Of a DNA stretch of 64,000 nt, positions 4,543-57,230 are shown one piece after another; within the stretch, counting starts at the first letter, position 1; every line of letters begins with the position of its first letter. Below the pieces are notes generated by a model, which saw only the letters and a program-made list of their open reading frames with translations, did no database searches and was not told the origin of the DNA. Source of the stretch: Fistulifera solaris. Taxonomy: Eukaryota. The translations under genes and the position numbers were made by a program. The DNA is taken from the NCBI GenBank assembly GCA_030295235.1, contig AP026124.1, positions 1,674,001-1,738,000 on the forward strand, written 5' to 3'.

Positions 4543-4860
4543 AGCAAGCCAGCAGAATGTCGAGGTTTATGCGATTCAGTCTAACACAAAACGGACGACT
4601 TTCAAATCATCATGATCAGCGAAAGATTTTGCCTGGAGTTGAACGGAGGATAAACCCGCCAAATAGTTGGTTACGAGAGACGGATGGACAGGGCAGATGT
4701 ACTGTTCCGGTACTGGTACCCGTGAAGAAATAATTTAAAAGACGCCTTCGGAGGAGAGATGGTACCTGGTAGGTCTAAATCGCAGAATGAATAAAGAAGT
4801 GTATTGTAAATGCTGCAAAAGGTAACTGCATACTACATACTATTGACAACTAAATAAGCT

Positions 4861-5976
4861 AACAAGCTTGTATAACGGACGAAGATTTATAGGTAGCACT
4901 CTCTAGCTAGAGAGAGAGTCGGGAAAAAATCGATTGATTCATGACTGAAAAGCAGTCGCGGATAAAGGTTGTATACACATTCGGCTAGAGTAAAGTCGGA
5001 AGTCAATGTTGATTGACAAGTTTTATCGACGTTACAAATCGCTTGGTATACAGCAAGTGCTGTCTGGAGTAAATGGACCTTAATACAAAACAAAGAATCT
5101 TGACAAGTTTGCAGAACGGATGAAAGTTAGGTAGCAGTCTGGTTCGAAAGAGTATTGATTCATGACACAAATCCAGTCGTGGTAATGGTGATAGAACACT
5201 TCAGTCATCTAGCTAGAAAATACGGAAGACAACGAATCACAAGTTTTATCGAAGTTACGAGTTGATACTTGTATTTCAATTACTGCCTCAAAGATTTGAC
5301 AGTAATGAAAGCCACTTTGATCTCGACAAGCTTGCAGAACAGATGAATGTCAGATAGCAGTCTGGCTCGGAAGAATATTGATTCACTACTCAAATGCAGT
5401 CGTGTCGAAAAACGGACGACACTTTCGGCGCATAGTAAATACGGAAGAAAACAAGTCACAAGTTTTGTCGACGTTACGAATCGTTTCTCGCAATTCCGGA
5501 AAATCTGGAAGACTTCTCGGTGATACAGAAATTCTGTGGATGGTCCAGAAATTCTGGACCGTCGGTGTTTGGGTCATACCTGGTACAGAGGAATCTTTGG
5601 AGGTTCCACAAATTCTGGAATCGATGTTTTGGGTCATAGATAAGATCTTTGGAAGTTCCAAATAATCTGGAATCGTTTTTTTGTCGTTCAGAAATTCTGA
5701 GGACATTCCGGAAAATCTGGAAGACTTCTCGGTCATGCAGAAATTCTGTGGATGGTCCAGAAATTCTGGACCATCGGTGTTTGGGTCATACCTGGTACAG
5801 AGGAATCTTTGGAGGTTCCAGAAATTCTGGAATCGATGTTTTGGGTATAGCTGGATTGTAAATTGTACGTAGTAACTAAAACCAATTTGTCCTGACAAGC
5901 ATACAGGACGGATGAAGGTTAAGAAGCAGTATGGCTCGGCAGAATACTTGTTCATGACTGGAATCCAGTCGTGGTA
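4861..5976. repeat. Degenerate ~223-bp tandem repeat (about 3.5 units) interrupted by a minisatellite block
   Basis: The anchor (G/A)ACAAG..(T/G)CAGAACGGATGAA...GCAGTCTGG...TTGATTCATGAC...CAGTCGTG recurs at 4861, 5102, 5325 and 5894. Confidence 0.75.
5492..5850. repeat. Near-identical direct duplication (212-bp period) built of CAGAAATTCTG(G) subrepeats
   Basis: TTCCGGAAAATCTGGAAGACTTCTCGG...GAATCGATGTTTTGGGT starts at 5494 and again at 5706. Confidence 0.9.
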
Positions 5977-6229
5977 AATTACATTGTGAGTAAGACTAAT
6001 ACCAAAGAACGAGGTGAAATAGTTGCGTTGCTCACAAATAACCTCGGTTCCTCGATGTATGACGGATGATTCCAAATGGCCGACGCAAATACTAGATCTT
6101 ATTAAAGCTTCAATTGAAACGAGGCTAAAAATGGATCTTCCATGCAAATGACTTGACATGAATAATTAACTATACACTCCGTATTACTTAATCCTCCCAA
6201 AATCGCTAGAACAACAAGTAAATCGGCAT

Positions 6230-8320
6230 TTATTCTTGAGTCCTTGCAGCTGTGCTCTTGGTTAAGCTGCACAAATTATTTAATATGGCATGGTATCGTC
6301 TCATACCGCTATCGAGCGAGGTAGACCCCGGATTTTTCAAATGAAAACTCACGCTTGATCGTGATATCTGACCCAAACCTTCTTTCCATGCTATGCCATG
6401 CTGTTCGACAAGCTTCTTCCAGTCTTGAGCGGGTTTCTCTTTGTTCCAGGCAGCATGCTGGTCAGCATTCCACGTGTGATATCGAGTCTCATTGTGATCA
6501 TCATTCGTATCGGTGCAGAGTACACCAGCTGATCGAAAGCAGGATGATACAAGCCTATCCTCATAAGAAGCTCTCCAATGCGGCATACATGTTGGATGAT
6601 TGAACAGCTCTTCCACTAAAAGTTTCAATGCGGCACTGTTTACTGTATATCCGGATCCACCATTGCAGTACCGTCGCTTCTTGAGCGCGAGAGAACCACC
6701 AATAGCAAGGGCATTGTATCATCCCAAGGTCCCTTCCACGACCCAGTTGCTGCAGTAAAACGCAAATTCTCAGGAATGAGATAATGATCGTCCCCACCAA
6801 TATGAAACAGATCAAAATCGTTCAAATAATGATCGTATGCATATTGAAACATAGCTCTCACTTTCATCCACATATTATCATATATTTCCGGACCCTCATG
6901 CAACAAATGAACGGCCCCAATCGACTTGTCGGTTAGATTCGACGCCGCAAAGAAACCATCACATCGAGGGGCCCATGTCTCTGCAATTGCTTGTAAGCGA
7001 AAATGCCCATTCGATTGCGTGTAAACCATACAAAGGACCCGTTTCTGGTTCTGGTGTGCTGTTGCGATTTCGATCTTTCTCAGCCCTTGGTATCCGTATT
7101 TTCCTTCGTCTCCTTCCCCAAAGGGATCTCACACACCCCTTTCGATTCTCCAGATACATGGTAGTTGAAAGGATGCGGGTGGTTCTTGATGTAATAAGGG
7201 TCATGGACGTATCCAGGATTACCGTGCTCATCTACAGCACCTAAAACTTTGTTCCAAAACTTATGACACGCTCCATGAAGAATCGAATGAACCCTGATGA
7301 GAGATAGCACTATATCAGAAGGCTTTTGTGACTGTGTTGCCCAATCCTCCCACGCACTCGGCAACGCTATTTCCGAGTATCGCCTTAAGTGCGCCCATTT
7401 TTCTTGTCGGTCGCGGGTTTTGTTGGGACGAAGACACGAAACGGGCACTCCCAAAAGACAGGATGATATCCAATTTTGAACAGCCAAAAAGTTATCACCT
7501 TGCCTTACCTGGGAGCAGTGTTGGAGTAGCCTCGCAGTCGGTTGATTGCCAGCACGTGGACTGTCGCAGCCGGGTGCTTTCATTGGGTCAGTCCCAAACA
7601 GATCTCGATATTCTTTGTTTGTTTCGGCATTATGAAGGATCCAGCTTTGTAAGACAACAGGATGGTCATGATTGGAGACCTGGTTGGATTGCAAGATGTA
7701 GAAGAAATTCTCGGGAACAAAGTAGGACCGATGCGGATCCATCCAATGAAACCACCGGTACTGACTCAATTCCGAAATAAAAACAAAAACAGCTTGTAAT
7801 CCGTCAGTTGTTACGGGGATATGAATTTGGTGAAGATTGTCGTCTGAATATTGAGATAAAGGAGCGTTCTCGTTCGCCATGTAAACTTGTAAGAAACCAT
7901 CACATTGCCCTTGGAGTGTTTGGAAAGAAAGTCATCCGTTTCTTTGATATCGGCAATCCAAACGCAAAGAAGCGGATTCTCGGTCGTTTTTAATGATCGC
8001 GTTTTCTGAAAGAAATAGTGCAATCGGTAAAGCACTTGATATCCCATTCTCCCGCCTTCTTCTGTTCCTTCCCCTGGGAGGACCGAACATACCTCAGGAA
8101 GATGCGTTTCCCATGGAGACAGCGTCTGGTTGCTAGCGGCTCCCAAACTAGATGATAAACTGGATATTTCATGCCGATTTCGAACTGTTTCCGGAATGAA
8201 AGATAAAGCAGTTTCCGAGGAGTCGGTGCTTCGAATAGCGCGACCATTCAAGAGAAAGGCAATGCTCGTCCACGCCAAGAACACGATGAGACAACTCAAT
8301 TTGAGGCGCGGAGACGTCAT
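6230..8320 (-). CDS. GT31-family (C1GALT1/core-1 beta-1,3-galactosyltransferase-like) type II membrane glycosyltransferase, frameshifted in the assembly
   Basis: N-terminal TM (LSCLIVFLAWTSIAFLL); AIAETWAPRCDGFFAASN, NMWMKVRAMFQYAYDHYLNDFDLFHIGGDDHYLIPENLR, EDRLVSSCF and SVSFH motifs spread over consecutive ORF pieces. Confidence 0.8.
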
Positions 8321-14368: not shown

Positions 14369-14961
14369 CGAAAAATTTCTTTGCTCGCTTTCCACTTGAA
14401 ATTGCAAGCGCGCTACGGGAGTCTTGTTGTGATCATGATGTTACATTTTTGAATCATCATGGATTGCCAAAATGTGAGCTCAACGCTCGTCGCACGAAAG
14501 AGATCATCAGTACGGGAGGACGTTAAAATTCTGCCTCCCAGTACAAGATTCCACGTAGCGTCTACGACGAGGCAGAATTTTAACACCATTCCCTGTCGTA
14601 TCAACACACAAAATATTATTATACTCCGTACTCTGTAGTCTGTAGTGAAAATTTATAGTTTGAAAACATATCGATCCAATAAGGTTTTGAGTAAAGAAGA
14701 GCAACGGAGTACTCCGTAACAGGTATACTTGTAAACCTTACCTGGTTGCGCATGAATCATCTTCATCATGAGTCCTTAAAGTTTAGGCGGACTCCAATCA
14801 TTCGCAAACCTTTAGCAATATTTCGCTGGAAAGAAGATACGAGTCGACCATCTAGGGTGTAATTATAATCGTTGACATGAATTTTATTCTCTGCATCATA
14901 GCCATTTCGACACCTACCTTTCCGTCGCTTAAAATCGCAATGCTACACTTTGGAATCATGT

Positions 14962-15648: not shown

Positions 15649-16263
15649 TTCGTGTATCTTCTCTCAACGGTTGGTGCGTCTTTTTTGCTGTTGTTTGATC
15701 AAAGTGAGCAAATGAAAGGTTCGACAAGGTTCCACTTCATGTTCAAGGTTCGTGTTTGTGTTAAGTAGTTAGGATGTTTCCGTTTTCCAACTCCTTTGGT
15801 TTTCCGTAGAACTGATCGGGTTCTTTGGGTGTAGGTTACAGTACAAATGGTGCAACGTAGTTGATACAGGTTTGGGCCTTTTAGGGTACCGTACACCGTA
15901 CGGGTACGGATTACGGATCAAAGAATTGTACTGGTACATTGTAGGTGGTTCTTTCATTATTTTTTATCTCTTCCGGTTCTTGCGCAGTTTTCACGTTTGT
16001 CTTTGCGGTTTTGCCATAAAGAGCATAATTTCGGAAACGCACCTCATTTCTCATTGCACTGCGAACAACCGCCCAGCGATCCACACACCAGATACCAGGT
16101 AACAATCCATTGCGTCTTTGTCAACCTTTGTTTGATATAAAAGAAATATTTTGTCCCCATCGCACCAAAACATCTTCTCTATCCGCAATCGTACGAAATT
16201 GCAAAAGCTTTTGGTGCTTACTTTCTCGCAAGCCTTACAAAGAACAATAAAGAATTTCCCCAA

Positions 16264-17649
16264 ATGTCGACGCGCTTCTCCCTCCGCAATGACACGGGAC
16301 AGCCGTCTGGAAATACTGCAGCTATCAGTCTATGGCAGAAATTCAGCTTGCTGCAGCAATCTATCGAGAAATGTATCAAGGATCGTAAGGAGATCGATGC
16401 AAGAATCGACGCGAGTCAAATGCGACAAAGCGACTTACGTGAATTGCGACGTGAAAGCCTGCAAGGAACGTGCGAAGCGGAGCGCAAGCTAATTGAGATC
16501 GAAGAGAAATTAGCAGCTCTTCAGAATCATTACGACATCGAAATTCAGCCTGTGTATGCTTCTTCCCTTTGGGAGAAACGAAACTCGGAAATCCGAATGA
16601 AACAATGGAAGGAGTACAAGGCATTAGCCCTACAACTTTTCTTGGACCGATCCGCCAATTTTCGTTCAAAGTGCAAGCGTCTCCAAATGGGATGTGAATC
16701 CTTGGATCTCACACATGCAAAATGCCAGGCATGGATGTATGTTTTTAGCTATGATCGGGGCGATGACGCGGATGGTGTTACCTTCGATGACTTCACCGAA
16801 GAAAATGATCAATTTATTTGTCCTACTGACGACGACGAATCAAAAAGAGACAACCCTTTACTCTGGGAGATTCCGAAAAACGACTACGAACTTTTGGATT
16901 TAGCCGAAAAGTACAAGCAGGAATTGGATGTTTACGAGATCTTTTGCAAAGAGCTGGACACGTTGAAAGAAAGAAAATCTGAATATATTCAGCAAGAGCG
17001 CACTCTCACAGAGCGAGCCAGTTTGATGCAAAAACAGTTGGATCGTATCTTAAGTGACTGCAGCGGTTTGGAGTCCCAGATTGAGGACCAGCGCGCATCG
17101 CGGTCGCATCAAGGTAATTCCTTCGTGATGGACCAGCCGCAAATCATCTTGAACCGCCCTAACCTTGTATCAGAACAATCCATTGCCATCTCTGACCGTT
17201 CGATACAGCATCAACAACATCAAATAGAATCGTTGGATGAACCGCCGGTAAAGCGACCGCGAACAAATCCTTATTGTCAAAGCAAAACAAACAGATCAAA
17301 TCTCTCAGCTTTAAAACGTCGCAAAGCTCTTCGGTCAGTCGTGCTTGGGTCGACAGCTGTTGCTCCCGTTTCTTCACCTTTACGGTCCGAATTAACTACG
17401 AAAGAATACGATTTTTCACGTTTTCAGCATGGTCATGACGTAACGGCGGATATATGTGAGGTCCCATCTTTAGGGAGGAATGCGCATGATACTGAAGAAG
17501 CTCGAATTGAAGGGAAAGGCTCTGAACGTAGCAGCGCACATTATCGCGCTAGTGCGGCAATCGACGATGACGATGAAGACGATGATCTTTTTCTCTTTTG
17601 TAGGTCTACGCAAGTAGTGCTATCAGCCTTATCACTTCTTTCGAGCTAG
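16264..17649 (+). CDS. Hypothetical coiled-coil protein
   Basis: 461-aa ORF with two heptad-rich E/K/L/Q segments. The 3' end may be affected by an indel. Confidence 0.7.
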   Translation: MSTRFSLRNDTGQPSGNTAAISLWQKFSLLQQSIEKCIKDRKEIDARIDASQMRQSDLRELRRESLQGTCEAERKLIEIEEKLAALQNHYDIEIQPVYASSLWEKRNSEIRMKQWKEYKALALQLFLDRSANFRSKCKRLQMGCESLDLTHAKCQAWMYVFSYDRGDDADGVTFDDFTEENDQFICPTDDDESKRDNPLLWEIPKNDYELLDLAEKYKQELDVYEIFCKELDTLKERKSEYIQQERTLTERASLMQKQLDRILSDCSGLESQIEDQRASRSHQGNSFVMDQPQIILNRPNLVSEQSIAISDRSIQHQQHQIESLDEPPVKRPRTNPYCQSKTNRSNLSALKRRKALRSVVLGSTAVAPVSSPLRSELTTKEYDFSRFQHGHDVTADICEVPSLGRNAHDTEEARIEGKGSERSSAHYRASAAIDDDDEDDDLFLFCRSTQVVLSALSLLSS

Positions 17650-18940
17650 CTCATAAGATACGAAGCCCTCGCTTCACACGATTGTCGAGCAAAATTTGCG
17701 GATTGGAAATGACTCTAGAGCCTAAGAATTTGGAAACTTCCTGGACGACTACCAGGTACTTGTACCATGTCGTATTGTTTTCGAGACAAAAACTGTTTGA
17801 TTCTTGACTCCGTATCGTATTGACCACCCATATGACACATAATGACCACTGGGCCACTTCTAGGTTCTAGTTCTAGTTTCTTGGTAAAGTACACCAATAG
17901 AGCGAGTACACATTCGCGAGCGAACAGCGATGGCTCAAAGCATTTTTTCCTTTTCAAGTCGTACACTAGGTCTCTAGGTCGTAGTTCGAAAACCCTGCTT
18001 ACTCGTAGAAACCAGAAGCTAGCAAGCTAGAGAAGAGAAAAGCTGGAAGACAAGTAAGCGATCACTAGTCTAACCACTAAGGCATAGAAAATCATAGATA
18101 ACCTCCCTGGCGTCTGTCGTCTCTAAAAAAGACTCTTGAGTCCTTTCCAATCCTTTTTAACGTCGTCTCTCGTTATAGCTATAGGCTATAGGCGTTACGT
18201 TTTACATGGCTCGGGGCTCGTGGGGAACTCCTTTCTAGATTTTGACTCTCTTTTCGGGCTTGTCATTTTAGATTCAAGCTTTACCCTGGAACGGTACCAG
18301 GTGTACCTCTCTACGTTCTCTATTCTCTATTGTCTCTCACTCTTCTCACCCTAGCCCGGGACTCCAACACTCAAAAAGGCCCAAATAATCGAGAGAATTC
18401 TTCGTTTTAAGTCATAAGAACAAAGGAAATTCTTTTCCGTTTCCAGTCCCATAGTCAATGACAAAACACACAATGAGCAATGACCCTTTCCATGACCCAT
18501 GACAACAGTGCTCACTGCTCATTTCTCTGCCAACGGCCAACAGCCGGTCTTCTTTTAGCTTCAAACTAGCTTCCCCAGCGAAATTTCTTAGGAAATACAT
18601 AGGTAAAAGGAGCGTGATCATAATACAGGAACTGCAACAATGATGATTATGAGACGCTTGCTCCTTGCTCCTCTGGAATTCTAGTCGTGCATTGTGCTAA
18701 ATGGGCTATGGGCTGTGGTGGCTGTGGCAGGCTGTGACTACCTGGTACCTGGTATGCCTGTGCCCTGTGCAGGATACCGCCACATCTTCTTCAGTATTTC
18801 TTACGGAGTAGGCTCTAGTTGGCGCTTAACCGACTGCCCACAAAATTAACTTGAACAAAAAGACTCACAAGAAATTTCATTCGACTGAGAAAGCCGGGCA
18901 AAAGCTGTGAGAAATAGCATGCGTTCAATAGCCTATCAAG

Positions 18941-27269: not shown

Positions 27270-27411
27270 GGGAATTGCCCTGCAAAAGTGAACTTCGTCA
27301 TTTTCTCAACCTCTCGACCTCTCGGTTCACTTTTTGCGACGAAAGACGTTATGGGGGCATGGCGCGTGTACTCCAAATGCGAGTGTACCGGTACCGGTAC
27401 GTATGCGCCCA

Positions 27412-30774: not shown

Positions 30775-31028
30775 CAAAATGAAATTACTTCAAATGGGGC
30801 ATTTTTCACCTTAATGATTTTTCGGAAATAGATTGTTCTGACTGTAGCTCAGACGCCCTTCTCGAGCGCTCTGTAATTTTAAAAAAGTACGGAGTATGTG
30901 GATAGCGGAAATCGTTTATCTCTAGTACTAACATCTTATTGAGATCTCAGTATTTGTGACTCGTCCCTAGCGGTACCTACTCATCGGTGCTAGCACGTAA
31001 TGAAATCAAGCAAACTTCCTATTGCACA

Positions 31029-35646: not shown

Positions 35647-36444
35647 TTTGCCAGATGCCTATTTCGTAATATAATGCACCGGCAACTAATAAATTGATAA
35701 CAACAATAATGACCGGACAGTCGACAACGAAATCTCCCATCGCCCCCGTCCGCATTATTTTTTTCAAATCGAAGGGGACGCGTGACGGCAGAATGCGTCT
35801 GTTTGCATTCTCCCTCTATGGAACCGGTACTGAAATCGTTAACAATCCGTAAACGGTTTAGAGCTTATTAGACAAAGCTGCGTGACATCTTTTGTTCCAT
35901 TTTCTAGAGTTCTGTGTAGCACTACGCTAAAATGTACAATAGCGCCGTCCACAGTTGCCTTTTAAACTTAGACATATAAAGACTATCAATAGGATAGTGA
36001 CCATAAATATATTCATACATGTATAAATAGGCACATTTTCTTGGACTTCCTTTTCAAATTTTGGTTTTAACAAACTTTTCGAATTACGAAGCGACACAAG
36101 CACAGCCTATGACGGAATAATCTAGCTACAGAGATACCAGGTAAAGCTAGTAAGGCTTAATTTACAATTATTTACAACAAACGTTGACGGCAAACTGAGA
36201 AGCAATGGTTAGCAACAGGAGGATGGGAAACCATCACGCATATTAAAGTTGTGACCTATGACGCTGCTACTAATGTAACAGGCCCGAAATGTAGTTTGTC
36301 GTCAAGTTATTGCCGATTAAATATCCGTCGTGAGTCACGATAGCTCATTATTTTCTTTCAGTCCGCTCCTCCGACTTTTCCTTGCTAGTCTAAGACGTAT
36401 AAGAACAAGCCTTTGGTATTCAGCCACTCCGCCATTCGCTAGCG

Positions 36445-36728
36445 GAACCGTAACTGCTTCATCAATGCCAGACGACTATACCTTAAATTTTTAACCTGAA
36501 CCGTAACTGCTCCAAAAAAGCCAGACGACTGTAGCTTGAATTTTTAACCTGAACCGTACCTGGTAACTGCTCCAAAAAAACCAGACGACAATACCTTGAA
36601 TTTTTAACCTGAACCGTAACTGCTCCAAAAAAAGATACGGAGTAGACGACAATACCTGGTACCCTGAATTTTTAACCTGAACCCGAACCGTAACTGCTCC
36701 AAAAAGCCAGACGACTAGACCTTAAATA
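36445..36728. repeat. 53-bp tandem repeat, 5 units, some carrying 7-bp insertions
   Basis: GAACCGTAACTGCTCCAAAAAAGCCAGACGACTATACCTTGAATTTTTAACCT units start at 36445, 36498, 36551, 36611 and 36679/36685. Confidence 0.95.
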
Positions 36729-36838
36729 ACTTATACGCGAAGCAACGTGCAACAACACAAAAGTTTTGACCCTTTCTCAGGCAAAGCATTTGATCATTTG
36801 CGTTCATCAACGAGCAAACCACTTTCATTGTCTGATCC

Positions 36839-37268: not shown

Positions 37269-37795
37269 TTTTCTATCGAATGGAAAAGGATTCGAAGCGT
37301 TTATTATCAAATGGGACAGTAATTTGCTTTGCAAGTATGCTTGCTGGTCGCTTTCTTCAGAAGTACCGGTAAAGGAAGGAATAGGGTATACCTCGGCAAG
37401 CAAAAGTTATTTCTCAAAAGGCTACCTAGCACCTAGCTATTTTCCTTTTCCTCACAATTTGATTCACCGGTTAAGATAACTGCTTATAGTTCGATTCTGC
37501 TTTTTAGTATTTGTTTCGAAGATTACAACTTATATGAAATAGCATAGAGGAAGAGGTTCATCTCTTTTGCTTGTTACTGGATGCGATAACGATAGCCCGT
37601 GACTCATCCAAGCATGAATGTGCCAGCGTTCGCCACGTACCGTGTCTGGTACCAACGAATGACGAGCGACGCACCTTCGTTTTCCTTGCATTCTTGCATT
37701 GAAAAGGGCTGTCGAGGCGAGGGGGATAAAAAGGTAAAGCAATTTTAAACTAACCAAAGAATACAACTCTTGTTGAACTCTTGCAACATGCAACG

Positions 37796-40873: not shown

Positions 40874-40898
40874 TGTCACAAAGGCGCTGTCATGGGAT

Positions 40899-43800
40899 TT
40901 AATTAATCCTGATTGTCCGGACGTTTTCATCCATCTGTAAGCCCATGTCATTCCACGATGACAAGAGGAGGTAATTCAAAAGTTTTTGCACGGCGAAGAC
41001 CAGGCGACTTCTTGTGCTCGCATCATATTTCCCTTCGCGTTCCATTACCTCTACGGCAATCGTATGATCAGAATGTTCTGTAAGAATCAGAAACACATTT
41101 TCACTCCGACAGTAAAATAGTTTTCGTGCCAGCCCTAGAGACCATGAAGGAGAAAATGCAGGCTCTCTCTCCAAGCGAGAACAATAACGAGTCCACTCTC
41201 CAAGAACGTTTCCGTTGCAAATCATTTTGATTCTTTCCAAGTCAAAACTTGATTTTAAAATATCTGAAACGGGCTTCACGACACAGAACCTAATGAGCTC
41301 TTCAATTTCACTTATTATTGGGGCTCCAGCTTTCGTCATGCCCGATAATTTTGTCCATAAATTGTCTCGATACAAAAGTCTCGCAGCCATCCGCAGCTCT
41401 CGATATGCGAGACCAGCAGCTTCCACTGCTATATTGTCAATTATCGTTATTGCAATGTTCGAACCGGGTCGAAACATGAATTCATGAAGATTTCTGCCCT
41501 GTGTACGACACAGGATGATTAGGCCAAAGCTATCCGTCGATGAGGGATTGTGAGTTATTGAGCAAAGAGAGAATGTTCCGTTCACGAGGATTTCCGTCTT
41601 GAAGCACAAACCGTTTTCTCCGCATCGCAAAATATTTGTGTTGTTGGAGGTGGAAGAAAGCCACTGGAATAATGTGGAAGCATCGTATCTTGATAGTGAC
41701 GGATCGCAGAAAGATGTCAGGACTATCTGGGTAGAGAAAGCCCTAAAACTTGATCTTAGTACCAATCTTTGATCAGCTAATGCACGGTGAAAAATCAAGT
41801 CTTGTAGCAACTTGAAAGCGTCCTCGTACTCAAGGGGTCCGTCCACTGATTTCAATGCTCTCTCGGCAACCGAGGCTGCGTGATCAAAAAGAGCCTTGTC
41901 CAATCGGAGCTTTTGCTTGGAGTGAAATAATAAAATGTCCATCCCAGTTGCATCTTTTTCTCGCATTGCGCTAGAAGAATATCTTCTTTTTTTCGTTTGA
42001 TCCCAACGGTCTCTCTCCTTTCGACGGCGAGGCAATAGAAGGAGAAAAGATTCGGCCGAAAGCATGGAAGATGTAAATGACAGGATCGAAAGTCTCGTAA
42101 CGCAAATGCACTTGGCCGACGTCACTGATCTTGATTCTGAGGAAATGACCGTTCTGTCCGACGAGTTACCATTGTTCTGGAGCGGCATGACCATGAATCC
42201 ATCAACCAAAGATGTTGTCACCTGGGCAAAGGAGACAATAAACGAGGGCCTGAGTGCAGAAGGAATTGGGAGCATTTCTGAGACAAGTGCCACGCCACAA
42301 CTATTCTCTTGGAGCAACGACCACGCGCTAGCCAATGACACATCCTTCTTTGGTGCCAAATGCCAAACAGCTGAATTCGCTGCCTTGGTCGTTCTGGCTT
42401 GTTCAGTGTGTGCGCGAGTCTGTCCAGAGTTGGCTAAGCTACTATATTGTTTTTGGATGCTAGCTTCCTGTGGATCAACGTAGTTTGTTCGAGTCGTCTG
42501 TATGGCTACGTTTGGAGTAACGCCTTTGAGTAGTGCCACCTGGCCCTTTCGTGTCTGTGTAGGCTGCCTCTGAACATTTGTCGTGTTTCCAGAAGGTGTG
42601 CCTTTAAATAAATTTGAGCTAGCTCTAGCCCTTGAAGCGGCTACTGCGTGCAACGCCGACCCCTCAACAGACTTCCCAATCAATTTTGGCTTCCTTATGC
42701 TCGTCGGGCGGCTTATCCGACGCCTTGGTGCCGATTGCGATTCTCCCAAGAGAACATCTGGAGCACCAGATTGACCAGACGAGTTTATTTTGGATTTCTC
42801 CTCTCTGTTGTTGATCTTTGAAAGCTTTCCTGGCTGCTTTGCTGGCTCTTTTGTGCTTCTAGGTGCTAATATCCTGAGTGAATTCCTCTGCAGCGTGTCT
42901 ACCGAGGACCTTGCGACGTTGCTCATCTGGTTCTCTTTAGAAGTTACCCGAGCTGCTATCTTTTCAAACAAACTTGTAGTCCAGTTATAAGCGAGTAGAG
43001 AACGCTTGTTGCGTTTTACGACTAGCACGAAAGCCAGAGATCTTGAAAAGAATAATGGGCTGTTCTCTTTCATTTGTTCAAGAGCAGCAACAACAAGGTC
43101 CGACTTCGCACCTTTGTCACTTATGGCTACCTCTTCAAAAAGCTTGGGTGGACCTTTTTCATGTTGACGAAAAAGACAAAATATAATGTATTCAGGACAG
43201 TCTACGGGCTCGTCTTCCTTCGGGCGAATATTCGATAGATTCACCATTTCGGGGGGTTCATTCCGTGACAACCGTATTGTACACAGTTCGAAAAGAAGAT
43301 CATGACCCTGTAGTGTCTCTTTTGACTCCAGTCGCATCTGGTCTAAAATGATTCCATTTGTGAGCTCGAAAGCAAACTTGGCGACATTCGATGCCCGTAG
43401 ATCTGCTGCATCGTATTGGAACTTTAGCACAGCAGGATGCGGTAAATTGTACGACGATTCAAGCATGCTTGTGATGGCAGGTAATCCAGGGCAAAGACAT
43501 TCAATTGCCTCATCTCTTGACAAATCACCCGAAACTCTGTAGTCCAGCGTTTTATCCATGTCTGCACTTCGCTTCCTTCTAAGTAGATTCTCCAGGGTCC
43601 AAGCTGCAAGCCCTTGATTCAAGGTCAACTTGAGCCAATCATGAAGAACCTCCCTCTTCAAAACGGTATCATAGATTTTTATTTGCACGAAAAACTTAGA
43701 TTCCATTCCAACTTTGTCTTCATCACTAGAGAGATCTAGTAAGTCAATCAATCTGATGTCCATTACGTCCACGCTCAATTTATTGTCCAAAGCAGCCGTT

Positions 43801-46800
43801 TCGCCAATGGAGGGTAGCGAAGAAACCTTCTTCCCTTGCTCATTGATCAGAGACACTTCGATCAACCCCACACCCGTTCCTGTCATTCTTGAAAATTCGG
43901 CGCCCTTTTTAGTAAGAGTACTTAAACCCTGAAACTCCGGGTCGAGCTTAGACGAATGGTTGTTGTAGTAGAACATCATATTAGGGACGTCTTCCCCCAC
44001 GCAAGAAGTGTCATCGTTCCCATCTAAGCCCTGAAAGAAGATGGAATCAGGTGCTAGTAATTGTTGGAAGAAAGTAGATCCGCAAATATTTTGCTTGAAG
44101 TACAAAGGACCATTCCAGGATCGACAGCAAGCTTCGGAAAAGCGTACTTTTTGACCCTGGGCGACGACAATCGCGATGTTTCGTCCCCGTCATCAAGTCG
44201 GCTCCAAATTTCTTCAAATGTCAAAACGAAGTTGATGTCAACCTGTTTCCAAAGATATCGTGGATTTTTCGTGAGAACACTTGAAAGCATTTCCACTGCT
44301 ATGCCATAAAGCTTCTTTTGAAGTAGTTCTCGCAACTGCTTAGTGATGGAAGGTCCAGGTTGATCAATACCGTGAACAAGAAGCTCAATTTCTCCGTCGG
44401 GTTCAATGCCTCCGCCACGAGCGGATAACATCATGTAGAATATTGAACCTTGTTCATCTTTATATACAAAGACTCTCATACGATTTGAGACTGCGAATAT
44501 ATGAAGAACAGTTGCTTCTAACGTCCTCGCGACCTGCAATGGATTCGTAGCACAGCGATGGAAGAGATCGAAGGTGGTCCTAAACAATATAGGACACTGA
44601 AAAACGCCCGTATCGAAGACGTCTTTTTCTTTCACCACAAAACTACTTTCGCTAGTTGCCACAGAATCCGGTGGAATAAGGAGAATGCTAGCGCTTTTGG
44701 AAGCATGCAAACGTTCCAGAAGCAAGATTTGGTTCGTGCGGTGAGCGCACTGCGATACAAGCTCTTGTATTCTTTGCATTATTCTCAAACTCTCTTCTTC
44801 GCCGTCAGGATGGTGAACCTCGACGACAACCAAACCGCGGGATCGCCGAATACTAAGAAAACAAAAGTATGGAAGTGATGTTAACTCTGAGTGGTTCAGA
44901 ACAACAAAGCTGTAGCCATCGTCAAAAGCCTTCAAAGACACTAGCTTGTTGACAGCGAATTGATCTGATAAAAGTTGGAAGGATCCTTCAAAAGTCAGAT
45001 CATCTCTCGCTGCCGAGGATGCTGGAACCATTAAGTCTAACTTTGAAACGTAAAAGTACAAATCAACAGTCGACGCTACCGAATGGCGTGCTTGTCTGAG
45101 GCAAAGCCGGGCGAGTCGTAGATCGGCGTCTCCAATTGCAGAGCCTTGCCTGCGGAGTCTTCCGAGATGTTGCTCCGCTAAATTGCCGAATCAGAATGTA
45201 TAAGTAATGGGCTAAGATGAACAAATTGATTTTTTTACCACTTACCAACGTGGGCATTCAACAGCAAGGCGAGATCGGATGCCGCCGACACATGCGACGG
45301 AGGGAGCTCTCTTACTTGACGCTTACTTGCTTTCTCTGGGTCTTCCGTGTAAAGGGAAAGCATAACGGCAATACTCGTGCCTCGCTTAACAGCTTTCAGG
45401 TCCTGAACGGATGCGATCTTGTCATCTACTAAAATTCTTGCAAACAGAGGAACGGGTCGTACACCACCGTGGTATCCACTTTCACCAATGGAACTCGAAG
45501 ATACGCTTATGGCAGACGAGCTATCCAATGATTCCCCGTCAACGATGGATCGAAAAACAACATCTTCTTCCTCTATGTTTTTTACAACGTTACGGTCGTC
45601 TCCGTCATCATTGTTGTCGAATGGCTCAATTGGCGTTGGGTCACCGTCTTCGTCATGACTCGCAAGCATGTTTCTGAGTGGACTGGGATGATAAGCGAAA
45701 CATAATTGGTCGCCAGGGACAGGTTCTAAAGACGAGGAAAGAATTTCGAACAGCTTCGACTCGACGCCTCCTCCTTCGTCCAGTATTTCAACCCTTACTA
45801 CTTCAACAAAGCTTAGCTCGTTGAGAACTTGAATGAAATCACTCGGTGCGAAACAGAATGGTTCATTGCGTAAAGTGCTATCTAAGGCAGCCAAATACGC
45901 GGAACTCGCGTAGTTTCGCCTATGGCCACGATCCAGAGAATCGGTAAAATCAGTGACGCACATATGCTCCGTGATGTGATCGTCGTCGATACCATCCTCA
46001 ACGACATCGTCGCGTCGACTATAGAGCTGAAACGAAGTAATAAGTTGCAGGCCTTTTCAATTCAGATTCAAAAGGGACGCCGGTATGGCTGCACTTACGT
46101 CTCCAACGCCAATGGTGAAAAATGCCATGTCGATGTGCGTGGTAGATACGTCAGCCACATTTGTAGTGACTTGCTCTTGCGGCAAATGGACTATGCTAAG
46201 AGTATTTTTGTCATATTCAACCAAAAACCAATCACCTGATCCTTGACCGTCCATCGCAAAGCTGGGATCAATTTCCAGCTTCGCGACTCTTGGACCGAAA
46301 ACTTGAGACAAAAGCATTTGTTCCGTCAACCTCCTAAGATGCTCGTTAGCTGTTGTTTCCATATCATGGAAAAATCGCATTCGTAGGAAAGAGTGTGATG
46401 CGTACCCAAGCAATCTTTGTACAAATGCTGTTTGAAGTGGTGATATATCACTGAATTCATTACTTTCGTTTGACAATTGCAGCAGTGCCCTTCGACTTTG
46501 CAAAGCTAAAGCGCACTCTTGATCCCTTTTCCCCAGAGTTTGAACTAATCGGTAAAATTCAGAAAGAGGCGAGGGAATGAACAAAGAAGACCGGGAAAAT
46601 TGGCCGCTTTCGCTTTCAATGTGGAAGTCGACAACAACTTTGTCGGCAAGTATAGAGAGCTGGTATTGAACAAGAGTTCCCGGCTCATTCCTTGCGTCTG
46701 ACTTGTGAACAATTTTGGCAAGAAGCGCGTACTTGTCGCACGAATCCAACAGAAGAAAGTTGCCTATTTCTGTCCTTCGCTTTATGAGCAGAGGAAGAAG

Positions 46801-49208
46801 CTCCGGGTCCGTTACAAGGTCCCAAGTGGAGTGGTCGCAGTATTTCTCTACCATCAACTCATTAGTAGTTCTCTGGTCGGTTCCGAAGTGATGATTTTTC
46901 GTGCTCACTAGAAACTTCCCCATTTGTACTCTGAGAACGCGCACATGGCTAAGTTTTCCCAAAAGCTTCTTCAACGAAAACACGCAGGAGAGCCGATCAC
47001 TGGCCCCGCACCCACCTATAGTGTTGACTGTGACAGTCCAGATTCTTCCCGCGATAGGAGACCGGGCGATTTTCACTACACAATACGCTGGAAGAGACTG
47101 ATTCTTGGATATTGTCTGTTTGACGAAGCATTCTCGCCTCTTTATACACTGCGAAGACCACACTTCGAGTGCTTCAATCAGTTGCTCGGATCCGTCGTCC
47201 TGGTCTCGAAAATCACTCAAAAAATCATGCTCCCCAACATCGTATGGCATATTTCCGACACACACACAATCGAATTCATCCAGGCGAAAATGGCGTCTTT
47301 CTTGCAATGAACTAAGAGTCCCGAGCCGTTTCACAAATGGACTCTCGGGTGACTTCAGCTGATCACCCCACCGGACCGGTGTTAGCGATGACAGCAGCGT
47401 ATCTTCTTTCCGCATCCAGCGCAACAGCTTGCATATGCGGTCAGACACTTGCTGGTCGCTGCTCTTGGGAGAACCGAAATTCCCGTGAACAAAATCTCTC
47501 TTGACCAGTTGGATCAGTGACGGATTCCCCAACAGTTCAATTTTCACGTGCGCAAAGCCCATCATGTTGTTTAGTCCTACCAGGGACTTGTAGGCTACTT
47601 CGTAATACAAAATGACACTGGCATCCAATCCGAGAGTAAATTGGATCGAAACCTTCCCCGGATCCATAGTGCTTTGGCCATACTGTTTCACACGATAGCC
47701 TTCTCGGACTCTCAACATGATAAGACCTTTGATGGGAACCGGGTTAATAATATAACTCGAAAGCATGGTCCTTATGTGAGTGTTCGTTAGACTCGATTTG
47801 TCAACTTCACCACCGAAGACACGTCCCTCGGGCACCGACAGAGTTTTGACGGGGGCATCCGAAAAGTGCGTTTTGTCACGGATCGAGGGAGCGACACCCA
47901 GAGTCGGATGCGGACGGGGGGTGAGATGTGACAGACCAAAAATCGTGTACCACTGGACCGCATTCGACTGTAACGTATGCTGTGGAGACGAAAAGAAATG
48001 ATCCGCATAAAATGGTGAATTGGCATTGACATTTCCCACAAATGTGCGAGTACCTTCCTCCAGAAGGTTCGCATCCCAAAAAACACCCCCACTCGCTCGG
48101 CAAACCGATTTCAAAGCTTCTCTATCATCAGATAGATGCAGCGGATACGTGCCGCCCAGTGGATCGGCCGTAAGCAGCGTAAAGGCGGATAAATCGGTAG
48201 TATCTCCCAAAGTAGTAGCCACCGCAGCAGATCTTCCCGAAAGATCCAAGACCGAAATCGGTAGATCCGCACGATCCTTCTCCCACAACAAGTCCCCGGT
48301 GCTATCACAATCGATTGCCGAACCATCTGTCGCAATGACGACCGCCGGTCGCGCGGACGACGAAAGATTCTCCAAGCAAACATCGGCCGCATCGAGGATA
48401 TCCCGCAACGATGAAGAATGAAAGGGCATGGACCAGACATCGTACGAATTTCTTCCCGACACATTGTTGCGATACAGCAAACGCTCCGCCAGGGCCGATT
48501 CAATTTCGTGAAGTGCCCACTCTTTGATTTTTTTGCGACAATAGCTCCGCCGATGGTCGATCGGTGACACGAAAGTCTCTAACGAGCAAATGAATATCGG
48601 GTTCTTGTGACGGAAAGACGGCAATGACACTGACCGCGATTTCCGGTTTCCAGATCGTATCGTCCATTCCTGTGACGGGCTGTATCAATGCCGTAAAATA
48701 CAGTCGCACCAGGTCCGCCAATCGATCGAGGGGACACACACTGTGCGCGGTAATAGTACTTCCGAACGTAGTCGTCAAGGTGGCCTTGGCATCCAAACAA
48801 AAAAGCAATACGGGTCAATTCGTACGCAAAATACACGCGCGATGCCGGAATGAGTCGTAATGGTAGTACAGGTGGTTGATGACAAAAGAATTGTTTTTGT
48901 TGCAGAACGGTCTGAGCCATGGCGTGGAATCGGAGCAACGATCGTTGGAGGGCCCTGGTTTCCTTGCGTGACAATCCCGTCGTCGGCACACATTCCAAGA
49001 GCCGCACTACGCCACAAACCGATTCGCGGGTAAGACCCTCTTGTGTCGACGGATGATCTTCGGAATGAACCGTCACCACATCGAAATGATAACAAACACG
49101 TTCCGCGAGGCCGTATTTGATCCAGTCACTCAAGAGTATAACGACATGCAATGCCGGACTGCGAATTGTTACGAGTGATGGGAGCTTTCCGTCATGGATT
49201 TTGGTCAT
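40899..49208 (-). CDS. SZT2-like giant protein (KICSTOR scaffold homolog); introns 46098-46027 and 45245-45178, plus several indels
   Basis: About 2700 aa across chained ORFs; vWA-like N-terminal region (RIAFCLDA..., AVVIATDG); LIMLRVREGYRV; VLHIFAVSNRMRVFVYKDEQGSIFYM; IELLVHGIDQPGPSITKQL...LSSVLTKNP, all recalled as SZT2-like blocks. Confidence 0.7.
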
Positions 49209-49708
49209 GATTTAACTTGCGTTCGTCTTTTTCTTTTTTAGTAGTAGTATGAGGATGAGGATGACATTTTGGTTTGACAAACAACAAGAGTCTACTAGGA
49301 TCTAGGATAGTACGAAAAATGAAGGAGCGAACGTCGTCTCCTCTGTCGTTCTAAAAGTCAAAAAAGATGCGATGGGCGGTTCGTGATTGACGTCCACATA
49401 CAAGACTCCTTTATCATTCTCCGTTGTTTTCAAAAAAGTTCTGACAGGCGGAAAACAATGACAACCGGGAGAGACGAAGAGGCATAATGCTGGTAATAAC
49501 CCACTTTACGTTCACGTCCTTTTTTTTTAGAATTCTTTGGATGACTGGAAGCTGTCATTTGCGGCAATCAACTCCTCTAAAAACAATACTTTCATTATCA
49601 TTCAGTACCCTGGTAGTACCATCATCCTTCTTGCTCGTGTCGTGAACTTGAGAGAGAAATAATTCATTCACTTTCGAGATATCAAATCATTCATTCATTC
49701 ATTCATTC

Positions 49709-50896
49709 ATGTTGATATTCTTTTCCACAACAATTACCACACTCCGCACGGCCACTCGTTGCTCGTCCATCACTACGCGCCGCAGCATTCATTCTTCGCA
49801 ATTGACGATTGAACGAACCCAAGACACGACACGCTTCGACCAACGACCCCCGAACGAACATCTCCAATTCGGTACGACCCTGTCCGATCATATGCTCTTG
49901 ATCGAATGGCACCAATCGGAACAATGGAGTGCTCCCCGCATTGTACCGTACCAAAATATACAACTCAGTCCAGCGGCGAGTTCGTTGCAATACGGTTTAC
50001 AGTGTTTTGAAGGAATGAAGGCCTACAAGTCATTAGTCGATGATGATTCCTTGCGGATGTTTCGTCCCGACAAAAATATGCAACGACTCGCGCATTCGAT
50101 GGAGCGATTGCAGATGCCCGGGGCAAATTTTGATCACGAAGAATTATTGCGATGCATTGCGGAATTAATCAAAGTCGATGCCAAATGGATACCCTACGGA
50201 GAAGGATATTCGCTCTATTTGCGACCGACCGTCATTGCGACCACGAAAGCATTGGGATTGGCAGCACCAGATTCGATTTTGTTGTACGTCATTACCAGTC
50301 CAGTCGGGCCCTACTACAAGACGGGATTTCAACCAATTCGACTCATGACGAGTACGGACTATGTGCGGGCCTGGCCGGGAGGAACGGGGAATGCCAAAGT
50401 TGGAGGCAACTATGCTCCGACCATGAAACCACAATTCTTGGCAGCTGAGCATGGGTGTTCGCAGATTCTATGGCTCTTTGGGGAAAACGAAGAAATTACC
50501 GAAGTGGGAGCCATGAACGTTTTCTTCTATCTCATCAATGAAGATACACAGCGACTCGAATTGGTCACGGCGCCTTTGACACGAGGAGATATTCTACCGG
50601 GAGTCACACGGGATTCCATTTTGCATTTGGCAAGATCGTGGGGTGATTTTGACGTTTCAGAGCGGTATGTTACTATGGCGGAAATTGCAAAGGCAGCCGA
50701 AGACGGCCGTCTCATCGAAGCTTTTGGAGCCGGTACGGCGGCGGTTGTAACACCCATCTCCAGCATTCGACACAAAGGCAAGGATATCGATATCTCGACT
50801 GAAACGGGAGAACTCACGCGAAGGATTTGGAACGAAATTACTGGCATTCAGTACGGTAAAATAGCCGGTCCACCGGGATGGAGTGTCAAACTTTAA
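49709..50896 (+). CDS. BCAT: Branched-chain amino acid aminotransferase, mitochondrial
   Basis: LQYGLQCFEGMKAY, SLYLRPTVI, VRAWPGGTGNAKVGGNYAP, ITEVGAMNVF, ILPGVTRDS, EAFGAGTAAVVTP; Arg/Thr-rich presequence. Confidence 0.97.
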   Translation: MLIFFSTTITTLRTATRCSSITTRRSIHSSQLTIERTQDTTRFDQRPPNEHLQFGTTLSDHMLLIEWHQSEQWSAPRIVPYQNIQLSPAASSLQYGLQCFEGMKAYKSLVDDDSLRMFRPDKNMQRLAHSMERLQMPGANFDHEELLRCIAELIKVDAKWIPYGEGYSLYLRPTVIATTKALGLAAPDSILLYVITSPVGPYYKTGFQPIRLMTSTDYVRAWPGGTGNAKVGGNYAPTMKPQFLAAEHGCSQILWLFGENEEITEVGAMNVFFYLINEDTQRLELVTAPLTRGDILPGVTRDSILHLARSWGDFDVSERYVTMAEIAKAAEDGRLIEAFGAGTAAVVTPISSIRHKGKDIDISTETGELTRRIWNEITGIQYGKIAGPPGWSVKL

Positions 50897-51214: not shown

Positions 51215-51565
51215 AAGTCATCAGCGCAAGCTTATCGCAAGAATTCAGCAATAGAAAGTGTCCCTTGTCGGCTTCTCTTCCTTTACAGAGAAAGCAATTC
51301 AGGGGTTAATTTCACAAGTAGAGTTATATTCGCAGTAGTTTTCTATTGTCAACTCGGTACCAGGTCAGAATTCTCTGGTCGTTCCGAAGTGAAGATTTTT
51401 CGTACTCGTAAGATGTTTTCCTAGTTGTGCCCTGAGAACGCCCACATGATTAAGCTTATTCCATCGAAAGCACGCACAAAAGTCGATTGCTTGCTCCACT
51501 TTCTCCTAGTGCACTGACTGCCAGTGTCCAATTACTTCCTTTTTCGGAAGACCGCGCAATCTTAC
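51215..51565 (-). pseudogene. Decayed partial duplicate of SZT2-like coding sequence (source about 46720-47075)
   Basis: Colinear similarity, e.g. TTCTCTGGTCG-TTCCGAAGTGAAGATTTTTCGTACTC vs TTCTCTGGTCGGTTCCGAAGTGATGATTTTTCGTGCTC, and CTGAGAACGCCCACATGATTAAG vs CTGAGAACGCGCACATGGCTAAG. Confidence 0.75.
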
Positions 51566-52221
51566 GGCCGAAATGAAGCCACCGTCGAGCTGCTGGTAAG
51601 ATCACGCTCTGCGGCGACAAGTGCCACCGAGGAAATCCGTTCTATTACGAAGGGTTAAACCCTTAGTGCGACGAATTTCCACGCGCATCCTTCATCGACG
51701 CATTGTTAATAGCATAAAGATCATTATCTGCAGGAAAAACAAGAAGGATTTTGTCATGTTGCTTCAAAACGTCGCTCAATGGCACGAACATGAGGGTGAA
51801 AAGAAATGGTGAAAAATCTTGCATTTTTGCCCGAAAAGCACGGTTTGAAAACACTACGTCCTCAAACTACACGTAAAGTAAGTGTAAGTGTACATAGTGC
51901 TTGGTACTTCGGAACGGTACTCATGTGTCGGTCTCTGTCGGAGTCTGGTTGCAAAATGTCGCAGAGGATGATGCACGGACAAACTGGACCATCTTTGAGA
52001 CTCGTGACTCATGGATGAATAACTTTTACACTGACACAGAATGTATTGTCAACATACACGGGACAGAGTGTTTTTACTACTCCGTACTTGTGAAGAGAAC
52101 CAGAGAACCCCCCTGCCTCCCCCTTTTTGCGTCATCGGCGCTTATTTTTGTTGAGAGTTCATTCACAACGACGAGCAAGGGTAATCTCAGAACCGAGATA
52201 CTCAGTATTTGAATTGTGAAA

Positions 52222-55445: not shown

Positions 55446-55687
55446 GGATTTCAGTCATAAGTCATGAGACGATCACATTTTTTTGTAAATGTAGAAGTAT
55501 CCTCCTAGTCTATAGTAGCTGCTCACGAACGGTTGTTTTTCCAAAAAAAGTTCGCCTTGGAATGAACATTTCTACTTGATGATGTTCCAATTACTAGTAA
55601 GCCTTTATTGTCAGGATTTCGGATATTTCCTTGATGACTAACCCTGACGAAAAGGAACATTCACAAGCGACTTACGCATCAAGCGCC

Positions 55688-56923
55688 TCAGTCGACTCGG
55701 TAACGCTGTTCTTCCTTCGCGTATTGACTGAAACCTACAGCATCCTTTGTCTCAGCGAAGGAAAGAATTAAATCATCAGTTGGAAGCCCGTCCCTAATAC
55801 GATCCAGAGAAGTTTGCATCGCCTTGATGGACGCTGAAAGTAGAGTCAAAGGATAAGCAGCAACAGTGTAACCCATTTGTTTCCAAAACTTGTGGGGGTA
55901 ATATAGGCGTCGCACCCATTTCGAGCATATTAGCAAGTTTCGGACCGGGAACTCTGCGGCAATATTCTTCCATTTGTTCTACCGACTCTGGAGCTTCCAG
56001 AAACGTCATATCACATCCTGCTTCACGAAACGCCGAACAGCGCTCGATCGCCGCTTCAAAGCCATCCGTTTTCAGTGCATCCGTGCGGGCAAGTACCAAG
56101 GGACCCGAGCCTTTCCCAAATTGTTGTTCGTATTCATCCCTCGCATCACAAGCTGCTCTTACTCGTTGGACAGCTTCATCAAACGAAACGACAGATTTCC
56201 CCGCAACGTGGCCACATCGCTTCGGAGCCACCTGATCTTCAATCATAATACCAGCCATTCCGGCTTTGGCGTATCCGTGAACCGTTCTTTTGACATTCAT
56301 AGCATTCCCGTATCCTGCACAATGGATGAAAAAGATTGTGATGATGAAACAACGGACAGGACGAAGTACACATTGCACCGTCCAAACGAACCTGTGTCAC
56401 CATCGGCAATACATGGAATGGGTTCCATTCCTTGCTCTACTGCTACTGAAGAGAGTCCTTCGGCTACCGAAAAGCAGGCCGACTGCATCTCACCGTACGA
56501 CACGAGCTGCGTGTCCGGGTAGCCGTTGGCGCCCGAGACGCCGAACCCTGTCATAAAAGTCGCCTCAAAACCAGCCCGAGCCACCAAGCGCGCCGTAAGT
56601 CCGTCATAACAACATGGGAGAAGAATCGGTTTGTCAGAGGGTCGCACACCCTCCATCTCTGCCTGCAACAGATTCCTCAGTCGCTGCGGTGGAGGGCCGG
56701 CCATGGCGGGCGTGTGCGAAGCGCCGACCAAAGAAAGGTTCCCGATAGTCAGCGATACCGTCAGTAAAGCTATGCGGGAGAAGGAAACGTACAAGCGGTC
56801 CTGTTTTGCGCGGAGTGAATTCATGATTGAAGATGTTGATGATGAAGATGTATTCATCTCCGTGGTACGGAGTAATATCTTTTTCATTTTTGTGATGGAT
56901 GCTGCATCAGAGATCTGAAACAT
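55688..56923 (-). CDS. ICL/PEP-mutase superfamily lyase (2,3-dimethylmalate lyase / carboxyPEP mutase / PrpB-like); start may be 56704
   Basis: PCCYDGLTARLV, GYPDTQLVSYGEM, IADGDTG|YGNAMNV, IEDQVAPKRCGH, LARTDA, FLEAP, KLANM. Intron 56391-56315; indel at about 55897. Confidence 0.9.
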
Positions 56924-57230
56924 TCGTAGCGGTTCCAGTCACTTTCCAAGTATAAAGTGGTATTCGAAATCGAGCAAACTTCTATAAGACAAAACGTCAA
57001 CGGATCGGTCGATTTTTGCGAGTTTGTATCACGAGGTGCGCATTACCGGTTCCGCACCGGTACCTGGTACATATGGTGCCTGTACCAGGCAAGGTACGCT
57101 GCAACACGCAAGAGTTTGATACTCGTGCAATCAAGACAAGTTTGTCGGCGTCGTCCACGGGCAATAAGTCAACTAATCAGCTTGTTGATCATCATTTCGG
57201 TAACTGCTTCTTTTGAAAAACAACAGAGAA

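Follow-up and report, generated by a model that had tools for sequence, protein, structure and literature searches.

TA-flanked nonamers in the non-coding DNA of a diatom: probable excision scars of TA-inserting transposons

What could place the same nine letters, framed by TA at either end, again and again between the genes of one diatom locus? The question is raised by a stretch of 64,000 nucleotides of Fistulifera solaris DNA (contig AP026124.1 of assembly GCA_030295235.1, positions 1,674,001 to 1,738,000; hereafter the window), in which the word TACCWGGTA, read as TACCTGGTA on one strand and TACCAGGTA on the other, is present in 11 copies. An initial annotation had proposed that these copies are footprints of a very active TA-specific element with CC(A/T)..(A/T)GG ends. 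We conclude that this word and its relatives are probably excision scars of TA-inserting cut-and-paste DNA transposons (IS630/Tc1/mariner type), contributed by at least two families. The main basis for this conclusion is a set of observations: enrichment of the words, their common TA frame, insertion at three sites, the existence of variants, chaining and non-coding location. From these we infer the transposon origin, the end sequences of the elements, the geometry of the overhangs and the cause of the chains.

An exact word search returned the 11 copies of the main word at the coordinates listed in the initial annotation, eight as TACCTGGTA and three as TACCAGGTA on the forward strand (Table 1). 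Since the copies at 5577 and 5789 lie within one direct duplication (142 nt, 97% identity, 212 bp apart), 10 copies are independent, as had also been claimed. The mean number of copies in dinucleotide shuffles (n = 100) was 0.16 with a top value of 1, and none of the 100 shuffles reached 11. Markov models of orders 1–4 gave expectations of 0.11–0.31, and a background taken from the 19.9 kb of non-coding-like sequence only gave 0.16; the strong enrichment reported earlier holds against all of these. At lambda 0.2, ten or more events have a Poisson tail probability of 2e-14, which becomes 3e-9 once the ∼131 000 possible 9-mers are corrected for.

Among words with at least six occurrences the main word was the top-enriched 9-mer: TACCAGGTA ranked first, the second and third words (TACCGGTAC and GTACCAGGT) were overlapping extensions of it, and the fourth, TACGGAGTA, belonged to a second family described below. 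TA-flanked words lead the enrichment list; the probability that a random 9-mer begins and ends with TA is ∼0.002. The same frame is seen when one starts from the core: the window has 80 occurrences of CCWGG, 11 of which carry TA on both sides, and no other flank pair was seen more than three times. Conservation ends exactly at the TA on either side, with unrelated flanks among the copies; all 11 copies of the main word and all seven of the second consist of a short core with TA on both sides. The tandem copy TACCTGGTACCTGGTA at 18739–18754 was confirmed as real.

The most direct evidence on how the copies arose comes from two internal repeat arrays in which units with and without the motif stand side by side. 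In the 53-bp array at 36445–36735, unit C reads GAACCG-TA-CCTGG-TA-ACTGC and the four other units GAACCG-TA-ACTGC; relative to the other four, in which this TA is intact, unit C has gained exactly 7 bp (CCTGGTA) behind the TA, a clean insertion. A second gain of 7 bp, in unit D, created another TACCTGGTA. The array itself (five units with the consensus GAACCGTAACTGCTCCAAAAAAGCCAGACGACTATACCTTGAATTTTTAACCT) lies in a divergent spacer and has three short insertions within ∼100 bp. In the array at 5493–5846, the sub-units at 5565 and 5777 have extra bases right after GGTCATA in comparison with four motif-less paralogs, e.g. GGTGATACAGAAATTCT. These two sub-units, which carry the copies at 5577 and 5789, represent one insertion event later duplicated, and they are one base beyond a clean insertion. 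In the related protein record P0243, itself translated from this repeat family, the alignment has a gap of three residues at the CTRYD that the motif encodes.

Thus, in both arrays the units with the motif are set apart from their paralogs without it by a 7–8 bp insertion adjoining TA. The alignments indicate that copies arise as short insertions at TA and not by point substitution; the proposal of a 7-bp insertion in the initial annotation is borne out by unit C and by the sub-units at 5565 and 5777, with 5 nt and the duplicated TA making up the 7 bp. The empty-site comparison covered the array sites only; seven sites of the main family and six of the second have no paralog.

The main word has relatives. 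A variant with a 4-nt core, TACCGGTA, was found at five sites (0.45 expected), among which is the tandem TACCGGTACCGGTA at 27386, and a variant with a 6-nt core, TACCCTGGTA/TACCAGGGTA, at two sites (0.04 expected); TACCSGGTA did not occur in the window. The second family, TACGGAGTA/TACTCCGTA, has an unrelated core in the same TA-N5-TA frame and was observed seven times, with an expectation of 0.28, or of 0.14 with the non-coding-like background. The core is palindromic apart from its centre in CCWGG, CCGG and CCAGGG/CCCTGG, and not palindromic in CGGAG/CTCCG. Taken as a class, TA-C(N0-4)G-TA words numbered 85 versus 44.9 expected (60 order-3 simulations, maximum 62), while the control class AT-C..G-AT was near expectation (110 versus 106). 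The 8-mer class TACAAGTA/TACTTGTA was also in excess (10 versus 2.05 expected); we left it out of the scar count because at least one instance, at 5266, shows nothing but substitutions relative to its paralog.

Head-to-tail chaining, in which one word shares its TA with the next, was observed 11 times, versus 0.52 expected and a simulated maximum of 3. The chains include TA-CCAGG-TA-CTTG-TA at 17750, one headed by a copy of the second family at 14622 and one of eight units at 63678–63724 (Table 1). Unlike words also cluster in common spacers, as at 18739/18746/18802 and 36557/36636/36653. Identical tandem units number at most two (at 18739 and 27386) and most copies are solitary; this does not fit a microsatellite or slippage array, in which one unit would be repeated in tandem at least three times.

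To relate the words to coding DNA we used open reading frame (ORF) length, since a coding score from codon usage proved unreliable: codon bias was too weak, and several Pfam-supported ORFs fell below threshold. The unedited mask consists of stop-to-stop ORFs of at least 100 codons, which together take up 81% of the window; of the main word, seven copies out of 11 lie outside every such ORF. When all related words are counted, the remaining 19% of the window contains 17 of the 25 sites, or 11 of the 17 loci (binomial p = 1e-7 and 5e-5, respectively), and the other sites are in ORFs without support or precede start codons backed by homologs. A second mask was partly edited by hand after the sites were known (ORF 5389–6165 was dropped and two 5′ extensions were trimmed); with it, 25 of 25 sites are non-coding, a figure circular to the extent of the editing, and for this reason the unedited figures are given as well.

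The initial annotation saw no copy inside a supported coding sequence (CDS), and this stands, as the four copies within ORFs fall in unsupported ORFs or a 5′ extension. The copies at 5577 and 5789 are within a 259-codon ORF (5389–6165, reverse strand) made of CCAGAAATTCTGG-type repeats, with a negative codon score and no Pfam match; the copy at 17750 is within a 103-codon ORF without support; and the copy at 57061 is within the 5′ extension of a TPR ORF whose first 160 codons are free of Met. Among all the words, the site at 56866 is the only one inside a Pfam-supported ORF, and it lies 42–50 bp upstream of a start codon common to all five aligned homologs. What keeps ORF 5389–6165 open is only that several frames of the repeat array lack stop codons. 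In the database it has a single, weak match, P0243, annotated as a hypothetical protein; as this record translates the same DNA repeat family, probably neither is a gene.

How could such scars form? Insertion would duplicate the TA. On excision the transposase would leave the flanking DNA with 3′ overhangs made of a few terminal nucleotides from each inverted end, and host end-joining would pair the overhangs. With CCA...TGG termini, as we propose them, two 3-nt overhangs joined with a one-base overlap would meet in a central A-A mismatch and yield TA-CC(A/T)GG-TA. Loss of the mismatched base would leave CCGG, as in TACCGGTA, and a one-base slip CCAGGG, as in TACCAGGGTA; the spacing variants (0, 1 and 2 nt) fit such end-joining outcomes. 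The 5-nt core implies either this joining or a deeper cut: in the alternative geometry 5-nt overhangs would be fully annealed, which would parallel the Sleeping Beauty scar, with a cut deeper than is known for the superfamily. In a CDS, a net gain of 6–8 bp would in most cases cause a frameshift and so be purged, and scars would pile up in non-coding DNA only. TA-CGGAG-TA would come from at least one additional element family. The chains may have formed by re-insertion into the TA of a scar or, just as well, by templated or slipped repair; the tandem at 18739–18754, which the initial annotation attributed to re-insertion, could have arisen by this route as one among several.

Known systems offer partial likenesses. 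The excision scar of Sleeping Beauty is TAC(A/T)GTA. Footprints of Tc1/mariner elements, like the main word in the window, have a duplicated TA around a short near-palindromic core with an ambiguous A/T centre. Their core derives from the terminal nucleotides of both inverted ends, as we propose for the words in the window, and the net insertion would usually cause a frameshift in a CDS. The termini of these elements usually have the form CA/CC...TG/GG, and the core in the window starts with C and ends with G; the Mos1 5′ end begins CCAGG, its repeat being given as TA-CCAGGT in an oligonucleotide table (PMC2642840). The passages on footprints in the same source describe in vivo mariner footprints as fitting a cut at the 3′ terminus of the element plus a 5′ break 2–3 nt inside it. 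The differences are that the window's core has 5 nt (CCWGG), while the usual Tc1/mariner footprint is given as 2–4 bp in the relevant part of another source (PMC7913693); that ∼20 kb of non-coding DNA contain ∼25 putative scars belonging to two families, a high density; and that the scars chain through shared TAs.

Stowaway-like MITEs (miniature inverted-repeat transposable elements), non-autonomous Tc1/mariner derivatives with TA target duplication, also have TA flanks and are found in non-coding DNA near genes. Unlike them, the features in the window are 8–10 bp long, lack internal sequence and show no terminal inverted repeats (TIRs) beyond the core. TA-bounded internal eliminated sequences of ciliates, which have Tc1/mariner-like ends, are excised precisely by a transposase-type enzyme in a somatic nucleus, with one TA left. 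The TA boundaries are alike; however, the window retains extra nucleotides, and in what is presumably the sole nuclear genome.

Several observations weigh against reading the words as excision scars. The dominant core, of 5 nt (11 sites), is beyond the 2–4 bp range, with the 4-nt core at five sites and the 6-nt core at two, and CGGAG/CTCCG, being non-palindromic, is not derivable from symmetric inverted ends. Within the arrays, the gain in unit D (36653) is ambiguous in its placement, as it can be read as CCTGGTA plus one substitution or as GGTACCC, and the TACGGAGTA at 36636 is a net gain of 8 bp with flanking substitutions, relative to paralogs without an ancestral TA. For the 8-mers TACTTGTA at 5266 and TACTCGTA at 51403, all differences from the paralogs are substitutions, so the wider TA-C..G-TA class is not all insertions. 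Words of the form TA-G(N0-4)C-TA are ∼2-fold enriched (54 versus 27.1 simulated), without explanation.

The element is also missing from the window. No transposase domain was detected when 274 ORF translations (45 of at least 150 aa, then 142 and 87 stop-to-stop ORFs of at least 75 codons) were compared with Pfam, the second pass omitting 16 ORFs covered in the first; this agrees with the initial annotation, which saw no transposase. Nor did we find in the window any element, MITE or pair of TIRs whose ends read TACC...GGTA, TACGG...GAGTA or TACTC...CCGTA, and the same holds for the putative CC(A/T)..(A/T)GG ends named in the initial annotation. The scan of terminal pairs, which also covered TACA...AGTA and TACT...TGTA, took all pairs 30–8000 bp apart; the best three had 11 of 14 matches, which is chance level and unconvincing. 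A Stowaway-like MITE, with TIRs around ∼50–800 bp between TA duplications, was rejected as a candidate for the same lack of a pair (best 11/14). A general search for inverted repeats gave nothing relevant or motif-flanked among the 25 longest of 57 pairs.

Words with one mismatch bear on the age of the scars. For the main family there were 14 (6.6 expected), seven of them non-coding, and for the second family 20 (8.8 expected), 13 of them non-coding. This excess indicates that part of the scar population is old and decayed, and the second family looks older than the first. The footprint reading of the initial annotation is therefore retained for insertion at TA, enrichment, non-coding confinement and the lack of a transposase in the window; its 'very active' element is not supported, given this partly old population.

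The rival that survives best assumes that the words are cis-regulatory: TACCWGGTA would be the palindromic site of a dimeric factor and TACGGAGTA a second site, both kept by selection in promoters. The motif is indeed palindromic, ∼12 of 17 loci lie, by ORF coordinates, in divergent spacers or no more than ∼600 bp upstream of a start codon, different motifs cluster in common spacers as they do in regulatory modules, and exact copies match one-mismatch copies in number. Still, we consider this explanation unlikely. Copies differ from paralogous units by insertions of 7–8 bp rather than by substitutions, and units overlap exactly in a TA 11 times. Enrichment at half-site spacings of 0, 1 and 2 nt alike would be odd for one factor. 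Two unrelated cores have one TA...TA frame in common. The distance to the start codon is not constant (∼45 to ∼1200 bp), and some sites are not in promoters at all: 30888 is in a convergent 3′–3′ spacer, and 17750, 62292 and 63684 are 100–220 bp after stop codons. A full-text literature search, judged at abstract level, found no link of either word to a transcription factor; it likewise found no account of these words as footprints or as diatom motifs.

A second rival dispenses with transposons and assigns the words to repair or replication at TA-rich fragile sites, by polymerase-theta templated insertion or slippage, followed by local copying. The two-copy tandems at 18739 and 27386 and the degenerate 7-bp periodic chains at 14622 are in line with such a process, as are the snap-back-like inverted copies CTCCGT-GGT-ACGGAG (56853–56867) and GCCTG-TAC-CAGGC (57078–57090). 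But templated repair copies the local flank, and inserts should then differ from locus to locus; instead, the same 5-mers are present at 10 and seven independent loci with unrelated flanks, and the majority of copies are single rather than in arrays. As a source of the words we find this mechanism quite improbable. The two inverted repeats just mentioned are hairpin-like, adjoin the putative scar words and hint at templated or slipped repair for the chains. The nearby TA-CCGGTTCCGCACCGG-TA (57044–57062) has CCGG at its start and end.

Chance, or a compositional artefact of GTAC- and TA-rich non-coding DNA, is effectively refuted: non-coding composition does differ from that of CDS and the motif was spotted by eye, but the non-coding background still predicts 0.16 copies against 11 and 0.14 against seven, shuffles never exceed 1, and the signal survives correction for all 9-mers.

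A bolder form of the transposon explanation could also be put forward, namely an unusually intense lineage-specific cut-and-paste regime that leaves 5-nt cores, with a staggered cut deeper than the 2–3 nt known for Tc1/mariner, and prefers its own scars as targets, which as landing pads would grow into TA-chains in gene-proximal spacers, or else a host-controlled excisase that has cleared the genome of TA-bounded elements, so that thousands of scars remain and hardly any elements. We regard either version as speculative and improbable. The less specific proposal, excision scars of at least two transposon families, remains the one we favour.

Table 1. Coordinates and surroundings of the TA-flanked words and of the two reference arrays in the window
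Feature	Position	Strand	Context
TACCTGGTA, main family	4763..4771	+	∼220 bp upstream of M16 peptidase gene (−); last TA shared with TAGGTCTA at 4770
TACCTGGTA, main family	5577..5585	+	Repeat sub-unit; insertion versus four motif-less paralogs
TACCTGGTA, main family	5789..5797	+	Duplicate of 5577
TACCAGGTA on +, main family	16093..16101	−	Divergent spacer, globin ORF (−) / ORF 16264–17649 (+)
TACCAGGTA on +, main family	17750..17758	−	∼100 bp past stop of ORF 16264–17649; TA shared with TACTTGTA at 17757
TA-CCTGG-TA-CCTGG-TA, main family tandem	18739..18754	+	Two copies (18739, 18746), one common TA
TACCAGGTA on +, main family	36135..36143	−	Spacer 35659–37043
TACCTGGTA, main family	36557..36565	+	Clean 7-bp insertion at TA, unit C of 53-bp array
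TACCTGGTA, main family	36653..36661	+	7-bp insertion, unit D of 53-bp array; placement ambiguous
TACCTGGTA, main family	57061..57069	+	Divergent spacer, PEP-mutase gene (−) / TPR gene (+)
TA-CCGG-TA-CCGG-TA, 4-nt core tandem (two copies)	27386..27399	.	Followed by CG-TA
TACCGGTA, 4-nt core	37364..37371	.	
Chain TA-CTTG-TA-CCGG-TA-CTG-TA-CCGG-TA-TCTGG-TA-CAAAG-TA-TG-TA-CCG-TA	63678..63724	.	TACCGGTA at 63684 and 63695
TACCCTGGTA, 6-nt core	49606..49615	+	∼100 bp upstream of BCAT ATG
TACCAGGGTA on +, 6-nt core	62292..62301	−	∼180 bp past stop of Sel1-repeat ORF
TACTCCGTA on +, second family	14622..14644	−	Heads chain TA-CTCCG-TA-CTCTG-TA-GTCTG-TA
AA-CGGAG-TA-CTCCG-TA-ACAGG-TA-TA-CTTG-TA	14703..14733	−	Second-family copy at 14710 beside inverted one-mismatch copy
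TACGGAGTA, second family	18802..18810	+	TA shared with TAGGCTCTA at 18809; 48 bp past main-family tandem
TACGGAGTA, second family	30888..30896	+	Convergent 3′–3′ spacer, ORF 29777–30691 (+) / ORF 31029–32582 (−)
TACGGAGTA, second family	36636..36644	+	Unit D of 53-bp array; net +8 bp versus paralogs, no clean TA insertion
TACTCCGTA on +, second family	52078..52086	−	Upstream of PsbP-like ORF, in-frame stop between
TACGGAGTA, second family	56866..56874	+	42–50 bp upstream of homolog-supported PEP-mutase ATG 56824 (−)
53-bp tandem array, five units	36445..36735	+	Internal 'empty site' reference
CCAGAAATTCTGG-type sub-repeat array	5493..5846	+	Second internal 'empty site' reference

Other short words were noted in the window. 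Examples of the TA-G..C-TA form are TAGGTCTA/TAGACCTA, at four sites versus 0.36 expected, and TAGACTA at five sites; two words of this form share a TA with copies of the main or the second family (4770 and 18809). These words could represent additional scar families, or a bias that has nothing to do with scars. Palindromic CAGAWWWTCTG cores (CCAGAAATTCTGG, CCAGATTTTCTGG) occur 10 times versus 0.19 expected, all in two tandem-repeat clusters (5493–5846 and 27412–27650) in gene-proximal spacers, beside scar-like words. They resemble heat-shock-element half-sites with unusual spacing and could be real regulatory arrays.

As to the window as a whole, its gene content indicates that it is nuclear and comes from a pennate diatom close to Fistulifera solaris. 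ORF 49709–50896, for an aminotransferase, has 93% identity to an F. solaris protein, and the remaining close matches are diatom proteins; a scan of genome contigs with the BCAT protein as query gave one match, a bacterial locus at 34% identity. Pfam matches include GET3/ArsA, M16 peptidase, globin, E2F, NUDIX, PPR and PsbP-like domains, as well as MYND, F-box, PEP mutase, TPR, glutamyl-tRNA reductase and Sel1; neither Rfam families nor tRNAs were detected in the window. The glutamyl-tRNA reductase gene (58969–60430, reverse strand) is split into three ORFs that differ in frame (GlutR_N, Shikimate_DH and GlutR_dimer), presumably by short introns, and the M16 peptidase, E2F and PEP mutase genes are split in a similar way. 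At E ≤ 0.001, Pfam gave no domain for two very long ORFs on the reverse strand, 40902–44189 (1096 codons) and 46060–48684 (875 codons). A dispersed direct repeat of 77 nt, 78% identical, links 46880–46956, within ORF 46060–48684, with 51381–51457, in the spacer after the aminotransferase gene.

Transposon footprints as such are known; the density, core length and chaining seen here are unusual. The 5-nt core and the non-palindromic second core lead to testable predictions on the ends and the cleavage geometry of the putative parent elements. If the words are indeed scars, then the most over-represented short words in the non-coding DNA of this diatom would be relics of transposons and not regulatory signals, and motif discovery in diatom promoters would need to have such words filtered out. 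Scar counts and their decay, exact versus one-mismatch, would directly gauge past excision even with the elements gone. Finally, recurrent 7-bp indels near genes would be a source of variation in promoters and untranslated regions among strains, or between the sub-genomes of hybrid diatoms.

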